A stretch of DNA of 64,000 bases, taken from assembly GCA_963698075.1 (NCBI GenBank), contig OY969116.1, positions 83,881-147,880 of the forward strand, given 5' to 3'. This document shows, in pieces, positions 1,545-57,948 of this stretch; within the stretch, counting starts at the first letter, position 1; each line of letters begins with the position of its first letter. Source of the DNA: an uncultured Candidatus Berkelbacteria bacterium. GTDB taxonomy: Bacteria > Patescibacteriota > UBA1384 > UBA12157 > JAENIV01. Both the position numbers and the translations under genes were made by a program. The notes under the pieces are model-generated. The model made no database searches. It was not told where the DNA came from and saw nothing but the letters and a program-made list of their open reading frames with translations.

Positions 1545-2204
1545 ATGGCAGACATTAAAAAAGAAGAAAAACAGGCAGAAAAAGAAGCGGAGGCAGAGGG
1601 GAAAATGGCAAAAGAGGCCTCCAAAGAAGAAGTGGCCGCCAGCCCGGATGAAACGACTCAGCCTGAAGCGGTGGTCGAAGAAGCCGCTGGTGTCGAAGAA
1701 GAAACCCCGGCCGAAGTTGAAGCAATTAATGTTGACAACGAGACGGCCAAAGAAGCGACTGAAGCTAAGATTGAAAAACCACAAGAAAAACCTAAGAAAG
1801 AAAAAAAGCCTGAACCTACTGGTAGGTTTAAGGATTTAATCAAGGAAATCGAGGGTTTAACCACGGTTGAATTAGCCGAGTTAGTTAAAGCTCTTGAGGA
1901 ACGTTTTGGAGTGTCAGCGGCTGCCCCCATGGCCATGGCTGGTGCGCCAGCGGCAGCCGGTGCCCCCGGCGCTGAAGCAGCTGAAGAAAAGGCAACTTAT
2001 ACAGTGGTTTTGGCTGATTCCGGCGCGCAAAAGATTGCCGTCATCAAGGCCCTTCGCGAGATTAACCAAGAGTTAGGTCTTAAGGAAGCCAAAGATATCG
2101 CCGATGCGCCGCCAAAAGAAATCCTCAAAGACGCTCCCAAAGAAAAAGCTGAAGACGCCAAGAAAAAGTTAGAAGCCGCTGGGGCAAAGGTTGAACTGAA
2201 GTAA
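1545..2204 (+). CDS. rplL: 50S ribosomal protein L7/L12 with an unusual ~95-aa E/K/A-rich N-terminal extension
   Basis: The C-terminal 120 aa ([33 protein letters not shown]...[12 protein letters not shown]) are canonical L7/L12. ATG 1545 is preceded by GGAAAGGA; the ORF track starts at TTG 1521. Confidence 0.85.
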
Positions 2205-23799: not shown

Positions 23800-25902
23800 T
23801 CAAGAAATTAGTTCAATTTGCGAACCATTTTCATCTTTGGTAACCTCTATTTTAGTCGGAAATAAATCCTTGAGTTCTTGTAAATGGGTTATAACTAATA
23901 TTTTTTCAAATTCGCCGGCAATCGAATTAATCGCCGCCACCAAATCGTCGCGGCCGGCCGAATCAAGCATGCCAAAACCTTCGTCAATGACCAAAAACTT
24001 CAAATGGGTGCCGGCGCGCGCGGCTAATAATTTTGAAAGGGCGATGCGAATAGCAAAATTAATTCGAAAGGCCTCCCCTCCCGAATACATTTCATAATCA
24101 CGTTCGCCTAACTCATCAGCAATTTTTATTTCTAAGGTTTCAATTAAATCTTCTTCGCTTTGGGCGGCCTTCCTTTCTTTTTGAGTGATAAATTTTAAAG
24201 ACATCCGGCCATCAGTGATTTTTCCCAGCAATCCATTGGCACCTTCTTCAATCGAAGAGAGGGCTGTTTCAATAATCATTGCCTGAATACCTTTTTTGCC
24301 AAAAGCCAACGCTAATTCTTCGTAATTAGCAATTTCTTTTTGAAAATCGCGAATTTCTTTTTGGAGGGATTTTAATTCTTTCTCTTGACTTTGGATCTGA
24401 ATTAATTCCTGTTTTAAGCCGCCTAAAAAATTTTGCAATTCTAAAACCTGGTTATTAATTTGTTCTTCCTCCACTTTTTTTTCTTGCCATTGGACACTCG
24501 CCTTTTCTAATTTTGATTGTTTGGCTTTAAGTTTTTTGCCATCGCGGCTTATTTTTTCTGCTTCCTTTTTAATTTGCTCTAATCTTTCTTGAATATTTTT
24601 CAAATTAGTCTGGGCATTTTTGAGATTGTTCTCCGCTAAATCAAGAATCTGTTTTTGCTCGCGACTGGTCGATAAATCTTCTAGTTGTTTTTGAATCTTC
24701 GTATGGAGCGATTCATTATAATTTATTTTTTTGAGTAGCAGCTGGAGTTTTTTTAAACGAGGACTGTATTTCTGGGCAAATTCTTTTTCGAGATGAGCAA
24801 CAATAACACTAGCTTCCTTTTTTTTCATCGGCCGACGGCACATTGGGCAAAGGGCAATTTTTTCGATACGCGAAACATCCTCATTTAACTTTTCCTTTAA
24901 ATTTTCTAACACTCGTAATTCTTGTAGAATTTTAGCCTGTTCGCGAAATTTCAAATTGGCTTGGTTATTTTGTTTTTCCAAAACTTCAAGCGCGGCAAAA
25001 TTCTTAAGGATTTTTTCTTTATTCTTGAGTTGTTCGGCGATTGATTTTTTTTCGGCAAGGATTTTTGCTTTTTCCTCGTTGAGATTTTCTGCCTCGGTTC
25101 TTAGACGGCCAAATTGATTTCTGAGATTTCCTAACCTTTCGTTGATGACTTCATGCTCCCGACTTTGTTTTTCCAAGCCTCTGATGGTCTCTTTTAATTT
25201 TTGGTGTTTTTTAGAAAGTTGGCTAAATTGTTCGCTGGCAAGACTTAATTGTTTTTCGACCACTCCTTTGCGGGAGACTTCAGCTTGGAGATCTTCCATT
25301 TGGAAGGTTAGCATTTTTATTTTTTCTTCGGAGGACCTGGCCTTTTGGCGGGCCTTTTGGGAGAGCTCTTCATAAAGATTAAGATCCAAAATCTCGCTTA
25401 AAATTTCTTTCCTCTCCGACGGTGTTTTAATGGTAAACTCATCGGCATGGCCTTGACGTAAATAAGAAGAATTGACAAATATTTCATAAGGGATTTTGAG
25501 GATTCGGATAATTTTCTCATTCGTGGCCTTTAAAGTTACCTCCGCAATCGATTGCCAGCCGACGTCATCGAGGAGTAATTTTTTTTGAGTCTTAGTTTGC
25601 AATTCTAAAAAAGATTGGCCTGCACTTTTTTTGAGTTCTCTTTTTCTGACGATTCGGTAAAGTCCACCTTCGTGCTCAAAAATGAATTCAACCCACATCC
25701 CGTGCTCGCCTTGGTGGATAAGTTCATCGTCTGAAGCCGCTCGTGTTTGTCCCCAAATGGCCCAAGTCATCGCCTCCAAAATTGAAGACTTGCCAACGCC
25801 ATTGTTGCCGGAAAGCACCGCTAAGTTAAAGGACTGAAAATCCAAGGGTTGTGGTTCTTTATAAGAAAGAAAATTATGAAGCTGAAGTTTAACGGGAATC
25901 AT
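23800..25902 (-). CDS. sbcC: SbcC/Rad50-like DSB-repair ATPase
   Basis: N-terminal LSGNNGVGKSS; CPMC zinc hook; C-terminal LVIDEGFGMLD signature/D-loop. Confidence 0.8.
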   Translation of the reverse strand: MIPVKLQLHNFLSYKEPQPLDFQSFNLAVLSGNNGVGKSSILEAMTWAIWGQTRAASDDELIHQGEHGMWVEFIFEHEGGLYRIVRKRELKKSAGQSFLELQTKTQKKLLLDDVGWQSIAEVTLKATNEKIIRILKIPYEIFVNSSYLRQGHADEFTIKTPSERKEILSEILDLNLYEELSQKARQKARSSEEKIKMLTFQMEDLQAEVSRKGVVEKQLSLASEQFSQLSKKHQKLKETIRGLEKQSREHEVINERLGNLRNQFGRLRTEAENLNEEKAKILAEKKSIAEQLKNKEKILKNFAALEVLEKQNNQANLKFREQAKILQELRVLENLKEKLNEDVSRIEKIALCPMCRRPMKKKEASVIVAHLEKEFAQKYSPRLKKLQLLLKKINYNESLHTKIQKQLEDLSTSREQKQILDLAENNLKNAQTNLKNIQERLEQIKKEAEKISRDGKKLKAKQSKLEKASVQWQEKKVEEEQINNQVLELQNFLGGLKQELIQIQSQEKELKSLQKEIRDFQKEIANYEELALAFGKKGIQAMIIETALSSIEEGANGLLGKITDGRMSLKFITQKERKAAQSEEDLIETLEIKIADELGERDYEMYSGGEAFRINFAIRIALSKLLAARAGTHLKFLVIDEGFGMLDSAGRDDLVAAINSIAGEFEKILVITHLQELKDLFPTKIEVTKDENGSQIELIS

Positions 25903-27177
25903 TGAGTTTCCTCAATCAATTTCTCCGCGGTTTTTAATAATTCTTGTTTATGGCTTTTGCTGACTTTTTTTGATTGGAGGTATTTTTCTAAGATGCCTAA
26001 AGTATCCAAACTGGCCAATTCATCGGAAAAACCATTTTTGATTTGCGTCCGTTCATGGCTTTTTACCTCTTTGATAATCCCGGCGATAAAATTAGCTTCT
26101 TCTAAAGCGGTGCGAATTTTTGATTCCGATATTTCCGCGGCTTTGGCTTCGTTGATCTCTATGACTACCTTGACAACAGCCTCGCGGATATTTTCTTTTC
26201 GAATCGCCTGGGAGATTTTTTCATCTGTATCATCGTCATCGGCAATTTTGACGTGGATGGTTAAAAATTTTCTGGCTGGAGTTTTGATGAATTGCCAATT
26301 CGTTTGGAATTTGTGGCGTTTGTTCGCCATAATATCAAGCAGGATAAATCCCTTATCTTCTTTTTCTTCGCCGAAATCAATCCGTTCAATCGAGCCGGCA
26401 TAAACAATTGGCGGTCCTGCCTGCCGGCGAGGCAGGTTTTTCGAGAGTTTCTGGTGCTTATGAATATGACCTAAAGCGACATAATTAAAACGGCTGTGGC
26501 GCAGGCTTGCGAGTGGTAAAATAATATCCGAGCCAATCATCACGCTCCGCTCCGAGCCAAAAGTCGCGCCTTCAACCGCCGCATGGGCTAGCAGGATTGA
26601 GGGAATCTTAGGATCGATTTTGCTTGATAGATATTCAACTTTAGCGGCTAAGGCGCGAGATAATTTTTGGCGCATTTTTTCCAGCGGCAATTTCAAATCG
26701 TTTTTAGTTAACAATTGTTGTTTGGTATACCACGGTAATCCGGCGATTTGAATCGGACCTGATTTTGTCTGGATGGTTTTTACCTGCCCGTCCGGCAGGC
26801 GGGCTTCGTCGCCGATCATATAAACATTTTTTATGTTCAAAGTCGGATAAATTTCTAATGTATGGGCTTTGCCTAAAGCGCCGGGAAAATCATGATTACC
26901 GACCAGCATCGCCACCGGAATATCGGCGCAGGCGAGTTCATAAATTTTTGAAGCAAATGCTTTTTGATAAGTGGGGTTAGGTTCGCGTGTTTTGAAGGCA
27001 TCACCGGCAAAGCAAACCAAGTCAACTTTTTCTTTTTTGGCGGTGGCGACGATCGTTTCAAAAGAATTTAAAAAATCGGCCAACCGCGAATTTAAGCCGG
27101 TTTCCGGATCAAATTTACCGTAATTTTCCATTCCCAAATGAACATCAGCAAAATGGATAATCTTCATGGCTAAATCA
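25899..27177 (-). CDS. sbcD: SbcD/Mre11-like nuclease
   Basis: MKIIHFADVHLG ... GNHD phosphoesterase motifs; start set at ATG 27177. Confidence 0.8.
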
Positions 27178-27186
27178 TAGAGGGTC

Positions 27187-27215
27187 TTGACAAAAATATC
27201 AATTTGTTGTATAAT
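27187..27215 (+). promoter_or_regulatory. perfect sigma70 promoter TTGACA-17-TATAAT on the plus strand, antisense to the guaA-sbcD junction
   Basis: hexamers at 27187-27192 and 27210-27215. Confidence 0.55.
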
Positions 27216-27221
27216 AAGGTC

Positions 27222-27326
27222 TCTAAAAGAAGTGGAAAAGTAACACACAGCATGCAAACAGGGTCCGGTTTGGCGGAGTAGGTTTTCCCCTCCTTGCCTA
27301 CTTCGCCGAATTGGCCCCTGTTTTTT
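27222..27326 (+). ncRNA. candidate ~105-nt sRNA with an 11-bp stem, a 14-nt C-rich loop UUUUCCCCUCCUUG (anti-Shine-Dalgarno-like) and a U6 terminator
   Basis: GGCGGAGTAGG (27272-27282) pairs with CCTACTTCGCC (27297-27307). CAGGG/CCCTG closes the structure, followed by TTTTTT (27321-27326). Confidence 0.4.
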
Positions 27327-27332
27327 AATTGG

Positions 27333-28859
27333 TTACTCCCATTCCATCGTTGCAGGTGGTTTATTGGTTATGTCATAGACTACCCGGTTTATATCCTTAA
27401 TCTCATTGGTGATCCGGGTGGAAATACGCTCCAAAATTCCATAAGGAATTTTGGAAAAATTAGCAGTCATCGCATCCTCTGATTCGATGATCCTAATGAC
27501 GATCGGATATTTGTAACTTCTTTCGTCTCCCTGAATGCCTACACTTTTAATTGGAAGCAACACGGCAAAACTCATCCAAATTTTTTGCCAATAATTAGTC
27601 CTTTTAAGTTCCTCTTCAATTATATGTCCTGCCCCTCGAACAATCTCAGCTTTCTCCTTTGTCACCTCACCAACGATTCTTACTGCTAAACCCGGACCGG
27701 GAAAAACTTGTCTTGTCGTAATTTCCTTTGGTAAGTTTATCTTTCTGGCGATTGCTCTAACTTCATCTTTGTACAGCTCACGTAAGGGCTCATATATTTT
27801 TAATTTTAAATTTTTCGGCAAGCCACCGACATTATGGTGAGATTTTATGTTGGAAGAATTTTTTGTAAGCCCGCTCTCAATCCTATCTGGGTAAATGGTG
27901 CCTTGAACCAAAAAAGTTGCTCCGGTTTCTTTGGCGGCCTTTTGAAAGATTGCAATAAAAATTTTCCCAATAATTTTTCTTTTTGATTCGGGCGAAGTCA
28001 CACCTTTGAGTGCTTGAAAAAATATCGGCCCAGCTTGAATAATTTTTAAATTCAAATCAAAATTCTTGAAGATTTTTTTAATATAATCTTGCTCTCCAAA
28101 TCTCATTAAACCAGTGTCAACATAAACGGCCGTAAGATTTTTGCCAATAGCTTTACTTACAAGAATTGCGGCGACGGACGAATCAATCCCACCCGAAAGA
28201 CCAATAATTGCCTTTTCTTGGCCAAAGGTTTCTTTGGCTTCGGCAATTATTTCATCAATCAGGGTTATTCGTTGTCGTTCCTTTTTTAAATGGCACACCT
28301 CAAAGACAAAATTCTCTAATATTTTTCTACCTCTGCGGGTATGGGTTACCTCGGGGTGGAATTGAACACCAAAAATTTTCATTTTCGGATTTTGATATGC
28401 AGCGATTTTTGAGTTTTCAGTTTCAGCGAGTATTTCAAACCCTCTTGGTAGCCTGGTGACCACATCGCGGTGATTCATCCAAACTAGTTGGCTAGATGAA
28501 ATTTTCGAAAAAATTTTTCCGAGGTTAGTTATCCGAAGTTTGGTTAAACCATACTCACCCGAATTGCCAGCCGAGACTTTTCCGCCAAGCAGATGGGCAA
28601 TAAGTTGATGGCCATAGCAAATTCCTAGAGTGGGGATTTGCTTTTTTAAAAAATTAGAACTGATTTTTGGAGCATTTTTCTCATAGACGGAACAAGCGCC
28701 ACCAGAAAGAACAACCCCTTTAATTTTTTCTGTGTTAAGGGTTTTTTCAAACTTTTTTTCATCGCCGATTATTTCAACATTTATCGCTAAGTCCCGAAGC
28801 CGCCGGCTGATCAAATGACAATATTGTCCGCCAAAATCATAAACTATAATTTTATCCAT
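27333..28859 (-). CDS. guaA: GMP synthase (glutamine-hydrolysing)
   Basis: N-terminal GATase and C-terminal ATP-PPase SGGIDS motif; 508 aa. Confidence 0.9.
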   Translation of the reverse strand: MDKIIVYDFGGQYCHLISRRLRDLAINVEIIGDEKKFEKTLNTEKIKGVVLSGGACSVYEKNAPKISSNFLKKQIPTLGICYGHQLIAHLLGGKVSAGNSGEYGLTKLRITNLGKIFSKISSSQLVWMNHRDVVTRLPRGFEILAETENSKIAAYQNPKMKIFGVQFHPEVTHTRRGRKILENFVFEVCHLKKERQRITLIDEIIAEAKETFGQEKAIIGLSGGIDSSVAAILVSKAIGKNLTAVYVDTGLMRFGEQDYIKKIFKNFDLNLKIIQAGPIFFQALKGVTSPESKRKIIGKIFIAIFQKAAKETGATFLVQGTIYPDRIESGLTKNSSNIKSHHNVGGLPKNLKLKIYEPLRELYKDEVRAIARKINLPKEITTRQVFPGPGLAVRIVGEVTKEKAEIVRGAGHIIEEELKRTNYWQKIWMSFAVLLPIKSVGIQGDERSYKYPIVIRIIESEDAMTANFSKIPYGILERISTRITNEIKDINRVVYDITNKPPATMEWE

Positions 28860-28917: not shown

Positions 28918-29736
28918 TTATTTAGTGAATTTTTTAATCCGATCCTCAATCGCCCTTTTGGTGGTTGTCCCAATAAATTGCTCTTTAACTTTACCGTTTT
29001 CTAAAATCAAAATATTTGGCAGACTCATTACCCCCAACCGCGCCGAAAGCCCGGGATTTTTAGTGACATCAATTTTATAGAACTTGACTTTATCGTTCCA
29101 AATTTTAGCTAAATCATCCAAGTGAGGTTCAATTGTCTTGCAGGCATGGCACCAAGGCGCCCAAAAGTCTAAAAGCACCATCCCCTTTTTGGAAATCTTA
29201 GCAAATTCTTTTTCCTTTAATTCCTCGAGTTTACCGGACACAGTCTTCCTCCTTTGAACCGTTATCCAAAGGACGATTTCATATAATCCAAACATTGTTG
29301 CCACATAAAATAAATCACCCATTAAAGTGTTTCGAAAGAAAGGCAACCCCATTATATACGATTGCATTAGCCCTGGCAAATTATGGGAATACATCGAGTG
29401 CGGCACGGCCCAGACGGCAAAATTAGTCACGAGGAAAAAGATGATCGAACCGAATAAACTTGATCCGATAATGTTGGGAAGGGTTTTATGGTTTTTCAGC
29501 CATAGACCAATTAGACCAATCATCATAAATGAACCATAGACAGAAAGCATTATCCAAGGGTTATAGAAACCTATAAAGGCATCCGAGATTAACACAGCCA
29601 CTATGGGAATGATTAAAGCATATTTCTTGTTCAAGTAGGTTCCGCCAAACAGAGCTATTGCCGCAATGGGGGCAAAGTTCGGTAAGTGGGGAACCAGTCT
29701 TAAGATAATCCCTGCAAGAATGAAAAAAAATGCCAT
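28918..29736 (-). CDS. polytopic membrane domain (ECF S-component-like?) fused to a C-terminal thioredoxin domain
   Basis: about 6 TM helices followed by WAPWCHACK (CxxC); ATG 29736 preceded by AAAGGAGAA. Confidence 0.6.
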   Translation of the reverse strand: MAFFFILAGIILRLVPHLPNFAPIAAIALFGGTYLNKKYALIIPIVAVLISDAFIGFYNPWIMLSVYGSFMMIGLIGLWLKNHKTLPNIIGSSLFGSIIFFLVTNFAVWAVPHSMYSHNLPGLMQSYIMGLPFFRNTLMGDLFYVATMFGLYEIVLWITVQRRKTVSGKLEELKEKEFAKISKKGMVLLDFWAPWCHACKTIEPHLDDLAKIWNDKVKFYKIDVTKNPGLSARLGVMSLPNILILENGKVKEQFIGTTTKRAIEDRIKKFTK

Positions 29737-29766
29737 TCGTTCTCCTTTCTTCATTGTAGCCAATTT

Positions 29767-30475: not shown

Positions 30476-30700
30476 TTAAAAAATCCTTAGCTTCGGTCAT
30501 TCATAGATTGCTAAGGAATTGCCTTTCGACCGAAGGACTTAATACAAAAATTTAAAGTTTTCTGGCTTGTCCTGAGCGAACGAAGTGAGTCGAAGGGCTT
30601 ATTCCTCGACTTTGCTCGGAATAAATCTTTCGTTTTGCTCAAGATTTACAGTAGCGTGACTGCCCCGGATTTCCACCGGGATTACCCTTAAATTTAGGTT
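30476..30700 (-). promoter_or_regulatory. cobalamin (B12) riboswitch-like leader with a terminator attenuator, 5' of the DUF4430 gene
   Basis: The minus-strand RNA GGGUAAUCCCGGUGGAAAUCCGGGGCAGUCACGCUACUGUAA (plus coordinates 30648-30687) matches the cobalamin aptamer core (GGUG.GAA.UCC...GCAG...CGCUACUGU). A partial B12-box AAGCCAGAA lies at 30568-30579. The terminator CCTTAGC...GCTAAGG plus U6 ends 9 nt before the RBS. Confidence 0.55.
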
Positions 30701-30716
30701 GAATTATTAAAGTGAA

Positions 30717-31121
30717 TTATTGTAGCTTCTCGAATCGCCAGTCGATTTTGTCGTTATTTTTAGTCTGGTACTGATCAGAACTAACCGAAGCCAGCTCGTT
30801 ATTGACATAAAACATCCAGTAGCTGTCATTGGTATTGGCCGTACCATCGATTGAGGTGACAAAGACACCCATAGAGGAATCCTCTGCTTTGACATCGTGG
30901 CTGGCTTTCAAAATATCCAAGGCAGTTTTGCCCTCTTGACCATCATAAGCAAGAGTCTTTTCGACTACCGGCTGAAATTGATTGGCAATGCCCGAGACTG
31001 TTTTGTTCACCTGTTTTTTGGAAACATAATTTCCGAGCAGACTGCCGCCAATAATCAAAATTGCCCCCAAAATGATAATGGCAATAAGATTCAACAGTCC
31101 CCATGAGTTCTTCTCAGACAT
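30717..31121 (-). CDS. DUF4430-like small membrane-anchored protein (134 aa)
   Basis: GKTALDILKASHDVKAEDSSMGVFVTSIDGTANTNDSYWMFYVNNELASVSSDQYQTKNNDKIDWRF. Confidence 0.6.
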   Translation of the reverse strand: MSEKNSWGLLNLIAIIILGAILIIGGSLLGNYVSKKQVNKTVSGIANQFQPVVEKTLAYDGQEGKTALDILKASHDVKAEDSSMGVFVTSIDGTANTNDSYWMFYVNNELASVSSDQYQTKNNDKIDWRFEKLQ

Positions 31122-35120: not shown

Positions 35121-35231
35121 ATTACCTCCTTAAGGAGAGAGAACAAAAACAAACATCAGATTAGGAAGGGCTTGCCCCGCTTAAGGGGCGCTGATGTCTG
35201 TTTTTGTTTTTATCTTTAAACGATTTTCAAT

Positions 35232-52853: not shown

Positions 52854-52882
52854 CTTGACAAAAAAGATGTGTTATTCTATAA
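52854..52882 (+). promoter_or_regulatory. perfect sigma70 promoter TTGACA-17-TATAAT
   Basis: hexamers at 52854-52859 and 52877-52882. Confidence 0.55.
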
Positions 52883-52888
52883 TAAAGG

Positions 52889-53283
52889 TTGACTTCAGAG
52901 TTATTTTTGGACCAGTACGCTGGTAGGGGCACCCGTCCCATCACCCGATCCCCCTCTCGGGACGCCCTGCCAGTAGTGCTGGTCCACTGTTTGGGCAACG
53001 CCTAGGACGTTGCCCTACTCGGGAGGCCCAGGTCGACACCCCCCTCGCCCCGGCTTGTGCCTCCCCCGCCGATAACGGTGACAGGCACCGTCTTCGACCG
53101 TTGCGCGCTTCACCGCAGGCCCTCTGCGCAACACGGTCGATCAGCGCCCGCGAGCGAGACCTGGTGCTCCGCTCGCACCTTTCACCCGCGGCGCCCAGCG
53201 CCGCGAGCACCTCGCGACAGGTTCATGACGCCCTCTCGCGAGCCGCCCTCGGGTCCATCTGGACCCGAGGGCGCTTTTTGTAT
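52889..53283 (+). ncRNA. unclassified GC-rich (~68%) structured RNA candidate, ~390 nt, with a strong intrinsic terminator
   Basis: terminator GCCCTCGGGTCC-ATCT-GGACCCGAGGGC plus T5 (53245-53279); many internal GC hairpins; ORFs are Arg/Ala-rich junk. Confidence 0.35.
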
Positions 53284-53301
53284 TCGAGGACTTTCAAAAT
53301 C

Positions 53302-55439: not shown

Positions 55440-55468
55440 TTGACATTTTATATAAGATGTGATATAAT
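55440..55468 (+). promoter_or_regulatory. perfect sigma70 promoter TTGACA-17-TATAAT
   Basis: hexamers at 55440-55445 and 55463-55468. Confidence 0.55.
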
Positions 55469-55474
55469 AGCAAG

Positions 55475-55925
55475 CGTAAAGTGGAAGGCCAGCCCTGTTT
55501 AAGGCGAGAAAGGGGGCGACGATGTGCGGCCTTTCTACTAAGGGACAAGTTGTCCGTCCCATCTGAGGGGAACGCGGTGAGCCCGGCCCAATCGTCTGGC
55601 GGCTCCCACGAAAGTGAGCCGTATCCGATCTGGGACCAGTAATGTGGTTCATCGGACCCTCAGACCAAGGGACACAACCTGCGTTTGGACGCGGAGGGCC
55701 GCCGGAAGGCGTGTCGTCCCAACAGGTCGCCGATCATGGCGACCGATGTCCTGCCACGGTGAACGCGGGGCTGAAATCCGCTGGGCTAAGGCCCGAGCGG
55801 ATTACCGCCGCACTATCACCCCCTGGTTAGGACTAGAAGTCTTCCAGCCCACGGCTGGAAGGACAACAGAATAGACGTCATTGACAGCCTCGCTGGTATT
55901 CCAGCGGGGCTGTTCTAATATTACA
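55475..55925 (+). ncRNA. unclassified GC-rich structured RNA candidate, ~450 nt, at the edge of a GC-rich island
   Basis: 12-bp terminator-like hairpin CAGCCTCGCTGG-TATTC-CCAGCGGGGCTG (55885-55913) plus a T-rich run; no credible ORF. Confidence 0.3.
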
Positions 55926-55934
55926 AAACAGGCC

Positions 55935-56204
55935 TCAACCGGAATGGTCGAGGCCAGGGGTTTTGTTCGCTCGGATGGCTCGGCTGAGGGTTTGGGGGAA
56001 GGAAGAATCGGGGGTGTCGTCGTAGCTGGCGAGGATGGCGAGCTGATTCGGGGTTAAGTGCCGTAGATCGGTGGTGATACAATCAATCCCTTGGGTTTGC
56101 GCTCGATTGACGACAGTTGCGAGATGCCGGACTTGGTCGGCATCGAGACGATTATGGTTGCGATGACGGCGCACAATATCCTCCCGCCCCGAAATGATAT
56201 ACAA
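55935..56204 (-). CDS. hypothetical protein (89 aa), GC-rich island
   Basis: ORF only. Confidence 0.3.
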   Translation of the reverse strand: MYIISGREDIVRRHRNHNRLDADQVRHLATVVNRAQTQGIDCITTDLRHLTPNQLAILASYDDTPDSSFPQTLSRAIRANKTPGLDHSG

Positions 56205-56283
56205 GTATTATATAAAAACTGTGGGTAAAATACAACCCCGTTAGATGTGGATCTATCTAACGGGGCAGTCATTCGATTCGCAA

Positions 56284-56427
56284 CTAGCGGGATCGGTAGC
56301 GCTCGTCAAGGATTGAAAGGGCGGTTTGCTCAATATCGCCTGAGGCTTCCAAACGGTTGAGGTTGGCTCTAAGATCATCTGGATCCATGATAATCTGGCT
56401 TGGCGTGGCGGCGAGCCTCGCTTTCAT
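56284..56427 (-). CDS. small protein (47 aa from the internal Met) coupled by an ATGA overlap to the upstream small ORF
   Basis: ATGA overlap at 56424-56427; followed on the minus strand by terminator 56234-56263. Confidence 0.3.
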   Translation of the reverse strand: MKARLAATPSQIIMDPDDLRANLNRLEASGDIEQTALSILDERYRSR

Positions 56428-56675
56428 TTCCTCGAGCCGCTCGGCAATCGTCGGCGTCGTCTTCGCGGGCATCGTGGTTTCCTCCTGTCTTTCTTTAATC
56501 TTTCCGCCTCCGTCTTTAGGAGTTCCTCGACCAACTCACAGAGGTGTGGAAACTCCATACCAGGCAGTTTAGCCACCACCTCTTCCGGAAGTTCTCCGAG
56601 CAGTTCGAGCGAAATGATGAGCTCAAACTGTCGGGCGAAAGCTTGGGCTTCGACAAGAATTTCGTTTCGTCTCAT
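56424..56675 (-). CDS. small helical protein (83 aa) with an Arg-rich C-terminus
   Basis: ORF; forms a two-gene module with 56284-56427. Confidence 0.3.
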   Translation of the reverse strand: MRRNEILVEAQAFARQFELIISLELLGELPEEVVAKLPGMEFPHLCELVEELLKTEAERLKKDRRKPRCPRRRRRRLPSGSRK

Positions 56676-57384
56676 CTCGCTCTCCTCCTCGGGTTTTCCA
56701 AAAAACCTTCGCGCGGAGCGAAGGTTTCCTCGATGATCTACATTTTAGCAAAAAGAAAACTACCTCCGGCTCGCGCCGCTTCTAGCATGGGCAGTCTTCT
56801 TTTGCATGTTGCGTAGATTCATCTTGATTTAAGCGTACTATATTATAAATCTTTTTGTCAAGTGGAACCCCGCTCGAGCTGATGCTTGAGCGGGGGATGG
56901 GGATGTATTCGTCGGTCTAGGTGCATCGAAGTAGTTCTCTGACTAATCGGACGAATTCATGGTCGTCGGTTATGTTCATCAGATCGGCGGCCTTATTGTC
57001 GCTGACCGAATTGGCGATGGGGAAAAGATGATGCGAGGCGGCGCGGTCAAGGAAGTCAGCCATAACATCAGAAACAGTCTCTTTCCTCTTTCGGATAGCA
57101 GGATTGCTTTTCTTACACACCGGATTCCTCCTTAGGGTTAGTCAGTTTGATTATAGAGGAAGTCTAGCTTAAAGCAAATCGCCTTGACTTTTCGGCTAGA
57201 ATATGATACACTAATAAAGTTTCGAACCTTAACCACTTCTATTTCTCCTTGGAGGGAATCTGACTATCTATGAACTCTTGAGGTAGTCAGTTTCCCTCTT
57301 AGGGAGGGCTTCCGTGTCCATAGTGGCACGAGAAGAATTCCGACCGCACCACGAGAAAACTCGTGGCGGAAAAGGAAATGCAGG

Positions 57385-57948
57385 ATGTCAGCAACGATGC
57401 GGGTCTATGTGCGGCCAGCCCACCTTCCTCGCGAAGAATGGCCAAAGGCCGACAAGGGCAAGCCGTTCGAGCTAGATGGACTTACGTTCGAGCGCGATGA
57501 GAAGGGTTTACACTATAGCTGGAAGCCCTTCCTTCCGGTCCGGAGAACCCCGTTCATCAACCCGGATGAGGCCCTCTGGTATGCCACTGTTCATGATCGA
57601 TGGACGCCATTAGTCCATCGCGCCACCGGTCTGTATGGCTCGCTAGAACAGGGAGCCGAAGCGGTCCTCGATCAGGAAGGGCCAGAAGGATCTTCGATGT
57701 ACGTCCTCGAAGTTTGGGGGAGGAACCCCGATCGTGTCGTAGATCTGTGGCAAGACATCCGGACCGGCAAAGCCGTACCACGAGTGCCGTTCGGAGGACC
57801 AGCTGACATATCGACGATCGAGCAGCTGATCACCGAGGGCCTCCAGACGGATGGTGGGCATCACAAGCAGTGGTATCTCGAACAGATCGCAGTCGCCCTC
57901 GGCATCAACCTGGATGGCATTCAGCGGGAACCCGGAATCCCCGCCTAA
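57385..57948 (+). CDS. GC-rich hypothetical protein (187 aa)
   Basis: ORF with an upstream GGAAATG context; unknown family. Confidence 0.4.
   Translation: MSATMRVYVRPAHLPREEWPKADKGKPFELDGLTFERDEKGLHYSWKPFLPVRRTPFINPDEALWYATVHDRWTPLVHRATGLYGSLEQGAEAVLDQEGPEGSSMYVLEVWGRNPDRVVDLWQDIRTGKAVPRVPFGGPADISTIEQLITEGLQTDGGHHKQWYLEQIAVALGINLDGIQREPGIPA

Follow-up and report, generated by a model that had tools for sequence, protein, structure and literature searches.

Between sbcD and guaA, the window that we analyzed (64,000 nucleotides of an uncultured Candidatus Berkelbacteria bacterium; GenBank assembly GCA_963698075.1, contig OY969116.1, positions 83,881 to 147,880; all coordinates are counted from its first letter) very probably encodes a conserved, independently transcribed non-coding RNA on the plus strand, the hairpin of which doubles as its terminator. 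This hairpin carries a 14-nt apical loop that is invariant in 33 of 34 distinct homologs from Patescibacteria. The loop, UUUUCCCCUCCUUG, is homopyrimidine (a 13-nt run) except for its final G and contains CCUCCUU, which we take to be the core of the bacterial 16S rRNA 3' tail, the anti-Shine-Dalgarno sequence. The most economical reading of these features, to which we would assign a probability of about 0.5, is that of a trans-acting small RNA (sRNA) which pairs through its C-rich loop with G-rich or Shine-Dalgarno (SD) sequences.

An earlier note on this stretch had placed a promoter of the form TTGACA-17-TATAAT at 27187-27215 on the plus strand, and this is exactly what is found: the site agrees with the consensus at 12 of 12 positions with a 17-nt spacer, and it is the sole 12/12 match in the 2.5 kb scanned. 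Across the 64 kb there are six 12/12 promoters, and the number with at most one mismatch is 12 versus 0.45 expected. The site at 27187-27215 is therefore a credible, real promoter, but exceptional strength is not implied. The start of the RNA was deduced from the promoter (about 27221-27223) and its end from the U-tract. Both the loop (27283-27296) and the CCCCUG-UUUUUU end (27315-27326) are present as described in the note, but the stem, given there as 11 bp, is in fact a helix of 27 bp in which 27256-27283 pairs with 27296-27323, with one U/C mismatch, four internal G-U pairs and a closing wobble (U27283-G27296) on top. The minimum free energy of the plus strand is −46.1 kcal/mol (z = −5.1; 0 of 200 shuffles were as stable). 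The reverse complement folds much less well (−37.9 kcal/mol, z = −2.0) because the G-U pairs turn into A-C mismatches. A stable hairpin (−46 kcal/mol) followed by six U residues on the transcribed strand forms an intrinsic terminator, which our terminator scan missed solely because the tool considers loops of at most 8 nt. The element is present as a single copy in the window.

Homologs were first sought at loci gathered via relatives of SbcD (82-55% identity). Nine of ten such loci carry a unit divergent from sbcD that consists of TTGACA-17-TATAAT, a variable 5' segment, a long hairpin capped by the identical loop, and a U-tract. When 185,579 species genomes were scanned for exact matches to GGTTTTCCCCTCCTTGCC, 43 loci were obtained, of which 14 fold as a long hairpin. 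These 14 all belong to metagenome-assembled genomes of Patescibacteria (labeled Berkelbacteria, Nealsonbacteria, Saccharibacteria or "Patescibacteria group") with one copy per genome; the remaining 29 are chance matches from unrelated phyla that form no hairpin. Because the genome scan fixes the loop sequence, we drew a second sample that is independent of the loop, namely metagenome contigs with relatives of the neighboring 134-aa DUF4430 protein, and searched these with a covariance model made from 17 hairpins. This gave 20 further copies of the RNA, each encoded on the other strand than DUF4430, with an identical 18-base core (the loop plus two closing pairs) in 18 of them. A single U-to-C change was seen in the loop of L054, and in L055 the loop is kept while a closing G-C pair is replaced by A-U, a compensatory change. 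The RNA was present in 18 of 19 loci in which DUF4430 is at least 46% identical and the downstream DNA is long enough, versus 2 of 18 loci below 46%. When the nearest negative loci were searched with the model and its filters off, only ordinary terminators and no orthologs with a divergent loop were returned. The scarcity below 46% identity, together with this negative search, indicates that the family is restricted to a clade and not spread over the whole candidate phyla radiation (CPR).

Tests of covariation and strand were performed on an alignment of the 34 distinct sequences. Standard pairs are formed in 93% of the cells, and 19 of the 26 stem pairs have changes on both sides. None of 500 shuffles reached any of the observed measures, and partner columns that were slid gave 39-50% pairing. 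The 77 G-U pairs, compared to 16 A-C mismatches, favor the strand of the promoter, and on this plus strand the hairpin is more stable in 33 of the 34 sequences (mean −42.2 versus −34.2 kcal/mol). TTGACA and a spacer of exactly 17 nt are invariant in all 34 chromosomal homologs with upstream sequence; the −10 hexamers match at four or more of six positions, often with an upstream TGn. From promoter to loop, the distance is 39-92 nt in the 19 homologs for which it was determined, and most homologs have a U-rich tail after the hairpin. Altogether, promoter, hairpin and U-tract recur in about 35 distinct sequences from Patescibacteria, with RNA lengths of about 85-150 nt, which together with the covariation and the G-U strand bias bears out the earlier proposal of an independent plus-strand small-RNA unit.

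No conserved reading frame covers the element on either strand. A small protein gene was rejected as a candidate, since the open reading frames (ORFs) over the loop vary in frame and strand and are absent from seven homologs, including the window. Searched against Rfam 15 at E-values of up to 10, the region matched only generic miRNA-precursor hairpins (33.8 bits versus a gathering threshold of 90 bits), and the covariance models for SRP, 6S, tmRNA, RNase P, RsaE (RF01820) and 6C (RF01066) gave no match. At gathering thresholds, the only Rfam match in the entire window is a cobalamin riboswitch. A dispersed repeat or miniature inverted-repeat transposable element was also rejected, given the single copy in the window and one copy per genome, and a weak match of our model at 35140-35217 turned out to be an unrelated terminator hairpin. 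The RNA thus founds a new family of a known functional kind, with no homology to any Rfam 15 family.

The hairpin with its U6 tract has the shape of a textbook terminator, and long hairpins with A- and U-tracts at their flanks are found elsewhere in the window, for example at 35140-35217. Like an intrinsic bidirectional terminator, the element is a GC-containing hairpin with an A-tract and a U-tract between convergent units; unlike such a terminator, it combines a stem of 26-30 bp and an invariant loop of 12-14 nt with a conserved promoter of its own. Terminator loops escape sequence selection, yet the 14-nt loop is invariant here while most stem pairs differ. Moreover, the promoter stands at a fixed short distance in all chromosomal copies with no other gene to serve, and the G-U bias reflects selection on the promoter's strand. 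It is therefore highly improbable that the element is merely an intrinsic (bidirectional) terminator beside a promoter-like sequence. The element is also clearly more than the mere terminator of guaA that the earlier note had raised as a possibility.

The 21 positions UAGG-UUUUCCCCUCCUUG-CCU are invariant or nearly so, whereas the rest of the helix varies freely. When the full-length RNAs are folded, the loop is unpaired with a probability of about 1.0 in every homolog, and the conservation of a CCUCC-containing loop in relatives, which the note had suggested checking, was thus confirmed with the loop always unpaired. The 5' segment varies in length and sequence; in many genomes it forms one or two unrelated small hairpins, and in L023 and L101 almost none. 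We rejected a pseudoknot, or sequestration of the loop through pairing with the 5' segment, because the complementarity between the two is not conserved (mean z = −0.29). The combination of a free stem, a variable 5' segment and an invariant unpaired loop indicates that the exposed loop is the functional determinant of this RNA.

In its predicted anatomy, the RNA has a consensus sigma-70 promoter and a short, variable 5' segment followed by the hairpin of 26-30 bp, the stem of which evolves by compensatory changes with the 14-nt loop and the UAGG/CCUA closing pairs held constant. Hairpin and U-tract terminate the RNA itself, and in many genomes the hairpin is also a weaker terminator of the convergent thioredoxin/ribonucleotide-reductase operon. 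If the RNA is a trans-acting regulator, the exposed loop, a copy of the CCUCCUU anti-SD core, would pair in trans with G-rich or SD sequences (AAGGAGG, GGGG) in mRNAs and so keep ribosomes from binding, in the manner of the C-rich loops of RNAIII, RsaE/RoxS, 6C and sX13. Several features of this class are found here: the RNA has its own promoter and terminator, is non-coding, and has a C-rich unpaired loop that is conserved while the helix covaries.

In RNAIII of Staphylococcus aureus, the exposed C-rich loops of H7, H13 and the terminator hairpin H14 pair with the SD regions of several mRNAs independently of Hfq. The likeness to the present RNA lies in the C-rich apical loop, even in the terminator hairpin itself. 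However, RNAIII is 514 nt long, has many hairpins, encodes delta-haemolysin and is quorum-regulated, whereas the RNA described here is a single hairpin of ~105 nt without sequence homology to RNAIII and without an Rfam match. RsaE/RoxS of the Bacillales (RF01820) is an RNA of ~100 nt with its own promoter and terminator, which targets the G-rich ribosome-binding sites of many mRNAs through unpaired UCCC motifs that are conserved across genera (PMC2790875). It resembles our RNA in size, in having its own promoter and terminator, and in the conserved unpaired C-rich motif, but it has two or three such motifs, a different fold and a different phylum, and no match was obtained even in the permissive Rfam search. 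The C-rich hairpin loops of the actinobacterial 6C RNA (RF01066) are conserved throughout the phylum and bind multiple mRNAs without a chaperone, and 6C has been linked to DNA replication and damage functions (PMC6486639). Similarly, our RNA sits between operons for dNTP synthesis and double-strand-break repair; yet 6C has two C-rich loops and another architecture, the link to DNA damage comes here from gene neighborhood alone, and there is again no Rfam match. Lastly, the abundant sRNA sX13 of Xanthomonas binds G-rich motifs near translation starts through C-rich (4C/5C) loops (PMC3771888). The C-rich loop is the shared feature; sX13 has three stem-loops, is proteobacterial and is unrelated in sequence.

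Several observations weigh against regulation in trans by loop pairing. RsaE, 6C, sX13 and RNAIII are analogs in function alone, as homology was not detected with Rfam, and because consensus promoters are common in this genome, high abundance of the sRNA is not implied. Targets were sought on both strands of the window (~7% of the genome) and in 356 kb of related loci, and in neither set did an extended loop-complementary site recur at start codons; the trans-acting translational repression proposed in the earlier note gains no support from this search. The best loop-pairing sites in the window are mostly intragenic G-rich stretches, and the matches at start sites are ordinary SDs: the AAGGAGG of the reductase gene pairs with the loop at −11.7 kcal/mol, and generic AAGGAGG sites do so at about −9 to −12 kcal/mol. 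Within the 356 kb, start codons coincided only sporadically with 9 or more uninterrupted complementary bases, and these sites were unconserved (DUF4430 in L005/L006, thioredoxin in L065). The neighboring genes (thioredoxin, DUF4430, DUF6580, reductase, guaA, sbcD) were rejected as specific targets, with only sporadic matches of 9-10 nt. In favor of the trans-acting reading, a strong SD such as that of the reductase gene does pair with the loop, and SD motifs are genuinely used in this genome, since a 4-mer SD core precedes 35% (first ATG) to 57% (best start) of the genes versus 7% at internal ATGs, and a 5-mer core precedes 15-31%. Nonetheless, only a third to half of the genes have an SD, so that the claim of the note that most genes use AGGAGG was overstated, and the immediate neighbors guaA and sbcD both lack one. 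Finally, the 14 loop bases and four closing pairs that are fixed exceed the 5-8 nt of SD pairing, and such invariance would be equally compatible with a protein partner or with a long, fixed RNA partner.

As a separate observation, GAGGGGAAAAUGG at 1596-1608 (plus strand) is perfectly complementary over 10 nt to the 5' part of the loop and ends at an in-frame AUG. The site lies in the L10-L12 region, upstream of ribosomal protein L7/L12 domains. Because residue 76 of the ORF is where the Pfam domains begin, the true start of rplL is uncertain.

The extent of the loop invariance leads to a different explanation, in which the RNA binds a protein or acts as a decoy. Loop and closing pairs would then form a protein recognition site, and the RNA would sequester, deliver or scaffold its protein. 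This protein could be a factor that normally recognizes the 3' tail of 16S rRNA, attracted by anti-SD mimicry, or a pyrimidine- or C-rich-binding protein of the KH, S1 or cold-shock type. The 21 consecutive near-invariant positions (UAGG, the 14-nt loop and CCU) in an otherwise free helix comprise more bases than SD pairing needs, CCUCCUU is common to the loop and the 16S tail, and no conserved mRNA target emerged from the window or the 356 kb, all of which would suit such a role. It would also suit the occurrence of the loop module alone, on different scaffolds, in phage-like contigs. On the other hand, no candidate protein is genetically linked, the neighbors being reductase/thioredoxin genes and DNA nucleases; one binding site per RNA would make a poor sponge compared to decoys of the CsrB or 6S type; and the multi-target C-rich seeds of known sRNAs are equally strongly conserved, likewise over large clades. 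On balance, we regard a protein-binding or decoy RNA as unlikely.

The phage-like copies were found in two IMG/VR contigs of ~40 kb, which carry the loop module behind promoters of their own. The copy in L134 (7737-7880, plus strand) has TTGACA and TATAAT ahead of a hairpin that is shorter but capped by the same loop and followed by a U-tail, and it scores 35 bits with our model; a RecT-like protein and a weak baseplate-hub match were also found on this contig. In L133 (400-545, plus strand), the exact 22-mer UAGG...CCUA sits on a short stem within a branched scaffold, just upstream of a replication-initiator O-like gene. Other viral 16-mer matches were rejected as opposite-strand SD regions of one phage family or as chance, and blastn searches of GenBank phages gave no match. 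The same loop on different scaffolds in these contigs argues that the loop itself is the active, portable functional unit. It should be noted here that the same loop, GUUUUCCCCUCCUUGC, also caps a terminator hairpin of 13 bp, followed by U7, on a GC-rich viral contig (L146, 1150-1230, plus strand). This hairpin has no recognizable promoter; it may be fortuitous, since chance alone should produce several 16-mer matches, or the loop may have been put to use independently. A broader scenario, which we consider quite improbable, is that the RNA is a global anti-SD mimic: it would occupy strong SDs, or a factor that reads the 16S tail, and so shift translation toward SD-less or leaderless mRNAs, the divergent repair operon among them, and phages would have captured the loop module to manipulate host translation.

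The remaining explanation is that the RNA and its promoter exert cis effects on their neighbors. On one side, the RNA could be an antisense RNA and shared bidirectional terminator for the convergent thioredoxin/reductase transcript (here that of guaA), with loop-loop kissing leading to a long duplex that is a possible RNase III substrate. On the other side, promoter occlusion could affect the divergent, apparently leaderless double-strand-break nuclease operon. The arrangement is suggestive in this respect. Among the 14 genomes found with the exact pattern, nine have the RNA convergent with thioredoxin, its terminator 36-100 nt past the thioredoxin stop codon, and in a tenth (L023) the RNA adjoins thioredoxin on the same strand; thioredoxin is ~1 kb away in L048. 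A-tracts 5' of the hairpin provide U3-U5 on the other strand in many copies. At the promoter side, about half of the loci have no more than 18-44 nt between the −35 of the RNA and the start of the divergent gene, and a −10 box lies 6-9 nt before the ATG of this gene. However, a cis-antisense pair co-varies automatically, so that the invariant loop would be unexplained. Furthermore, the RNA is inverted in L023, has unrelated contexts in L018, L034 and L052, and is far from the divergent gene in L045, L065 and L054; the minus-strand hairpin of the window is weak and followed by only UUU, and the phage-like copies have other neighbors. A locally acting element is thus doubtful.

The earlier note had also called the RNA antisense to the 3' end of guaA and to the 5' untranslated region (UTR) of sbcD, whose identities were both borne out. 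Both statements appear to be overstated. The gap from the sbcD ATG (27167) to the guaA stop (27333) is 165 nt and not 150 nt, the RNA ends (27326) 7 nt short of the guaA stop, and it overlaps neither coding sequence. If transcription of the convergent operon stops at the hairpin or continues through it, however, the RNA probably does overlap the 3' UTR of this operon. As for sbcD, a TATGAT −10 box lies 6 nt before its ATG, no SD is present there, and the −35 of the sRNA falls inside the spacer of this promoter-like site, so that the two promoters overlap back to back. The −10 box at 6-9 nt before the sbcD ATG is kept in L001, L003, L005, L006, L009, L060 and L101. The position of this TATGAT/TATGCT box and the lack of an SD suggest that the sbcD mRNA, transcribed from a promoter that overlaps that of the sRNA, is leaderless and starts at about the A of the ATG. 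Overlap with an sbcD 5' UTR is therefore improbable, as such an mRNA would start ~55 nt upstream of the RNA start. The public SbcD gene model P0001 (449 aa) is 27 codons longer (27168-27248, minus strand) than the model from ATG 27167 and crosses the sRNA promoter and 5' end. Because SbcD homologs have 405-421 aa, a length which the ATG-27167 model fits, P0001 is probably over-extended, and the sbcD gene model probably needs correcting. Exact-protein look-ups with the SbcD of the window and with P0001 returned no record.

The wider gene context places the RNA between two kinds of operon. guaA is not found at this position in L001, L006, L009 and others, and several loci fetched with SbcD that lack guaA still carry the RNA, with thioredoxin in its place, as in most relatives; the guaA adjacency is, judged from these loci, a local insertion specific to the source lineage. 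Thioredoxin ends a cluster with a B12-dependent ribonucleotide reductase, a BtuR-type adenosyltransferase, two DUF4430 proteins and DUF6580, the last of which is fused with thioredoxin into one 281-aa ORF in the source genome. This B12/ribonucleotide-reductase cluster, which ends at the sRNA hairpin, includes the cobalamin riboswitch, and its DUF4430(229 aa)-DUF6580::thioredoxin(-guaA) portion would be under the control of this riboswitch. The promoter-side neighbor is sbcDC or a DUF2130 gene. In relatives without sbcD at this position, DUF2130 adjoins the RNA (L021 2301-6508, L024 2584-3747, L037, L045, L052), and in L021 it is followed by a 1001-aa UvrD-helicase/PD-(D/E)XK (AddA-like) protein. 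DUF2130 is itself a member of the PD-(D/E)XK nuclease superfamily (PMC3424549). Judged from these predicted functions, the promoter-side neighbor, where identifiable, is a double-strand-break processing operon, and the terminator side concerns dNTP supply; a double-strand-break nuclease operon thus stays the neighbor of the RNA even though its genes differ.

Features of the sRNA locus and its surroundings. Coordinates refer to the window; the basis of each assignment is given where available.
Feature	Coordinates	Strand	Basis or remark
−35 hexamer TTGACA of the sRNA promoter	27187..27192	+	sequence; promoter scan
−10 hexamer TATAAT of the sRNA promoter	27210..27215	+	promoter scan
Predicted small RNA, ~105 nt	27222..27326	+	start from promoter, end from U-tract
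Variable 5' segment, starting near UCUC	27222..27255	+	comparison with relatives
5' arm of the long hairpin	27256..27282	+	fold; covariation
Apical loop UUUUCCCCUCCUUG	27283..27296	+	sequence; fold
3' arm of the long hairpin	27297..27323	+	fold; covariation
U6 tract, with the hairpin an intrinsic terminator	27321..27326	+	sequence
sbcD, divergent neighbor; start most likely ATG at 27167	25899..27167	−	TIGR00619 match
sbcD promoter-like site	27174..27202	−	−35 TTGATA 27202..27197; −10 TATGAT 27179..27174
guaA, convergent neighbor in this lineage only	27333..28859	−	identity confirmed
DUF6580-thioredoxin fusion (281 aa); gene normally abutting the RNA terminator in relatives	28918..29763	−	
Cobalamin riboswitch between two DUF4430 genes	30537..30731	−	33.1 bits, just above gathering threshold

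Two other regions of the window start with perfect promoters. At 55440-57385 (plus strand), TTGACA-17-TATAAT (55440-55468) is followed by ~1.9 kb of higher GC content (~0.52) that has no plus-strand ORF of more than 90 aa and no Rfam match; a long hairpin at 57242-57309 lies ~75 nt before the next long ORF. This region may be a large non-coding RNA or contain decayed genes. The promoter at 52855-52883 (plus strand) faces 52880-53300, where there is no long plus-strand ORF.

Post-transcriptional regulation in Patescibacteria is almost uncharted, as these bacteria are uncultured and have genomes of ~1 Mb with few recognizable regulators, and our search of the literature on small RNAs of this group returned nothing relevant. 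The present RNA is a well-supported, clade-conserved candidate regulator with one clear module, the invariant anti-SD-like loop. It is short enough for synthesis and in vitro testing, and the data suffice for an Rfam-style family. Its position between dNTP-supply (B12/reductase/thioredoxin) and nuclease operons, together with the phage-like copies, may point to a role in replication stress or in the competition between host and phage for translation.

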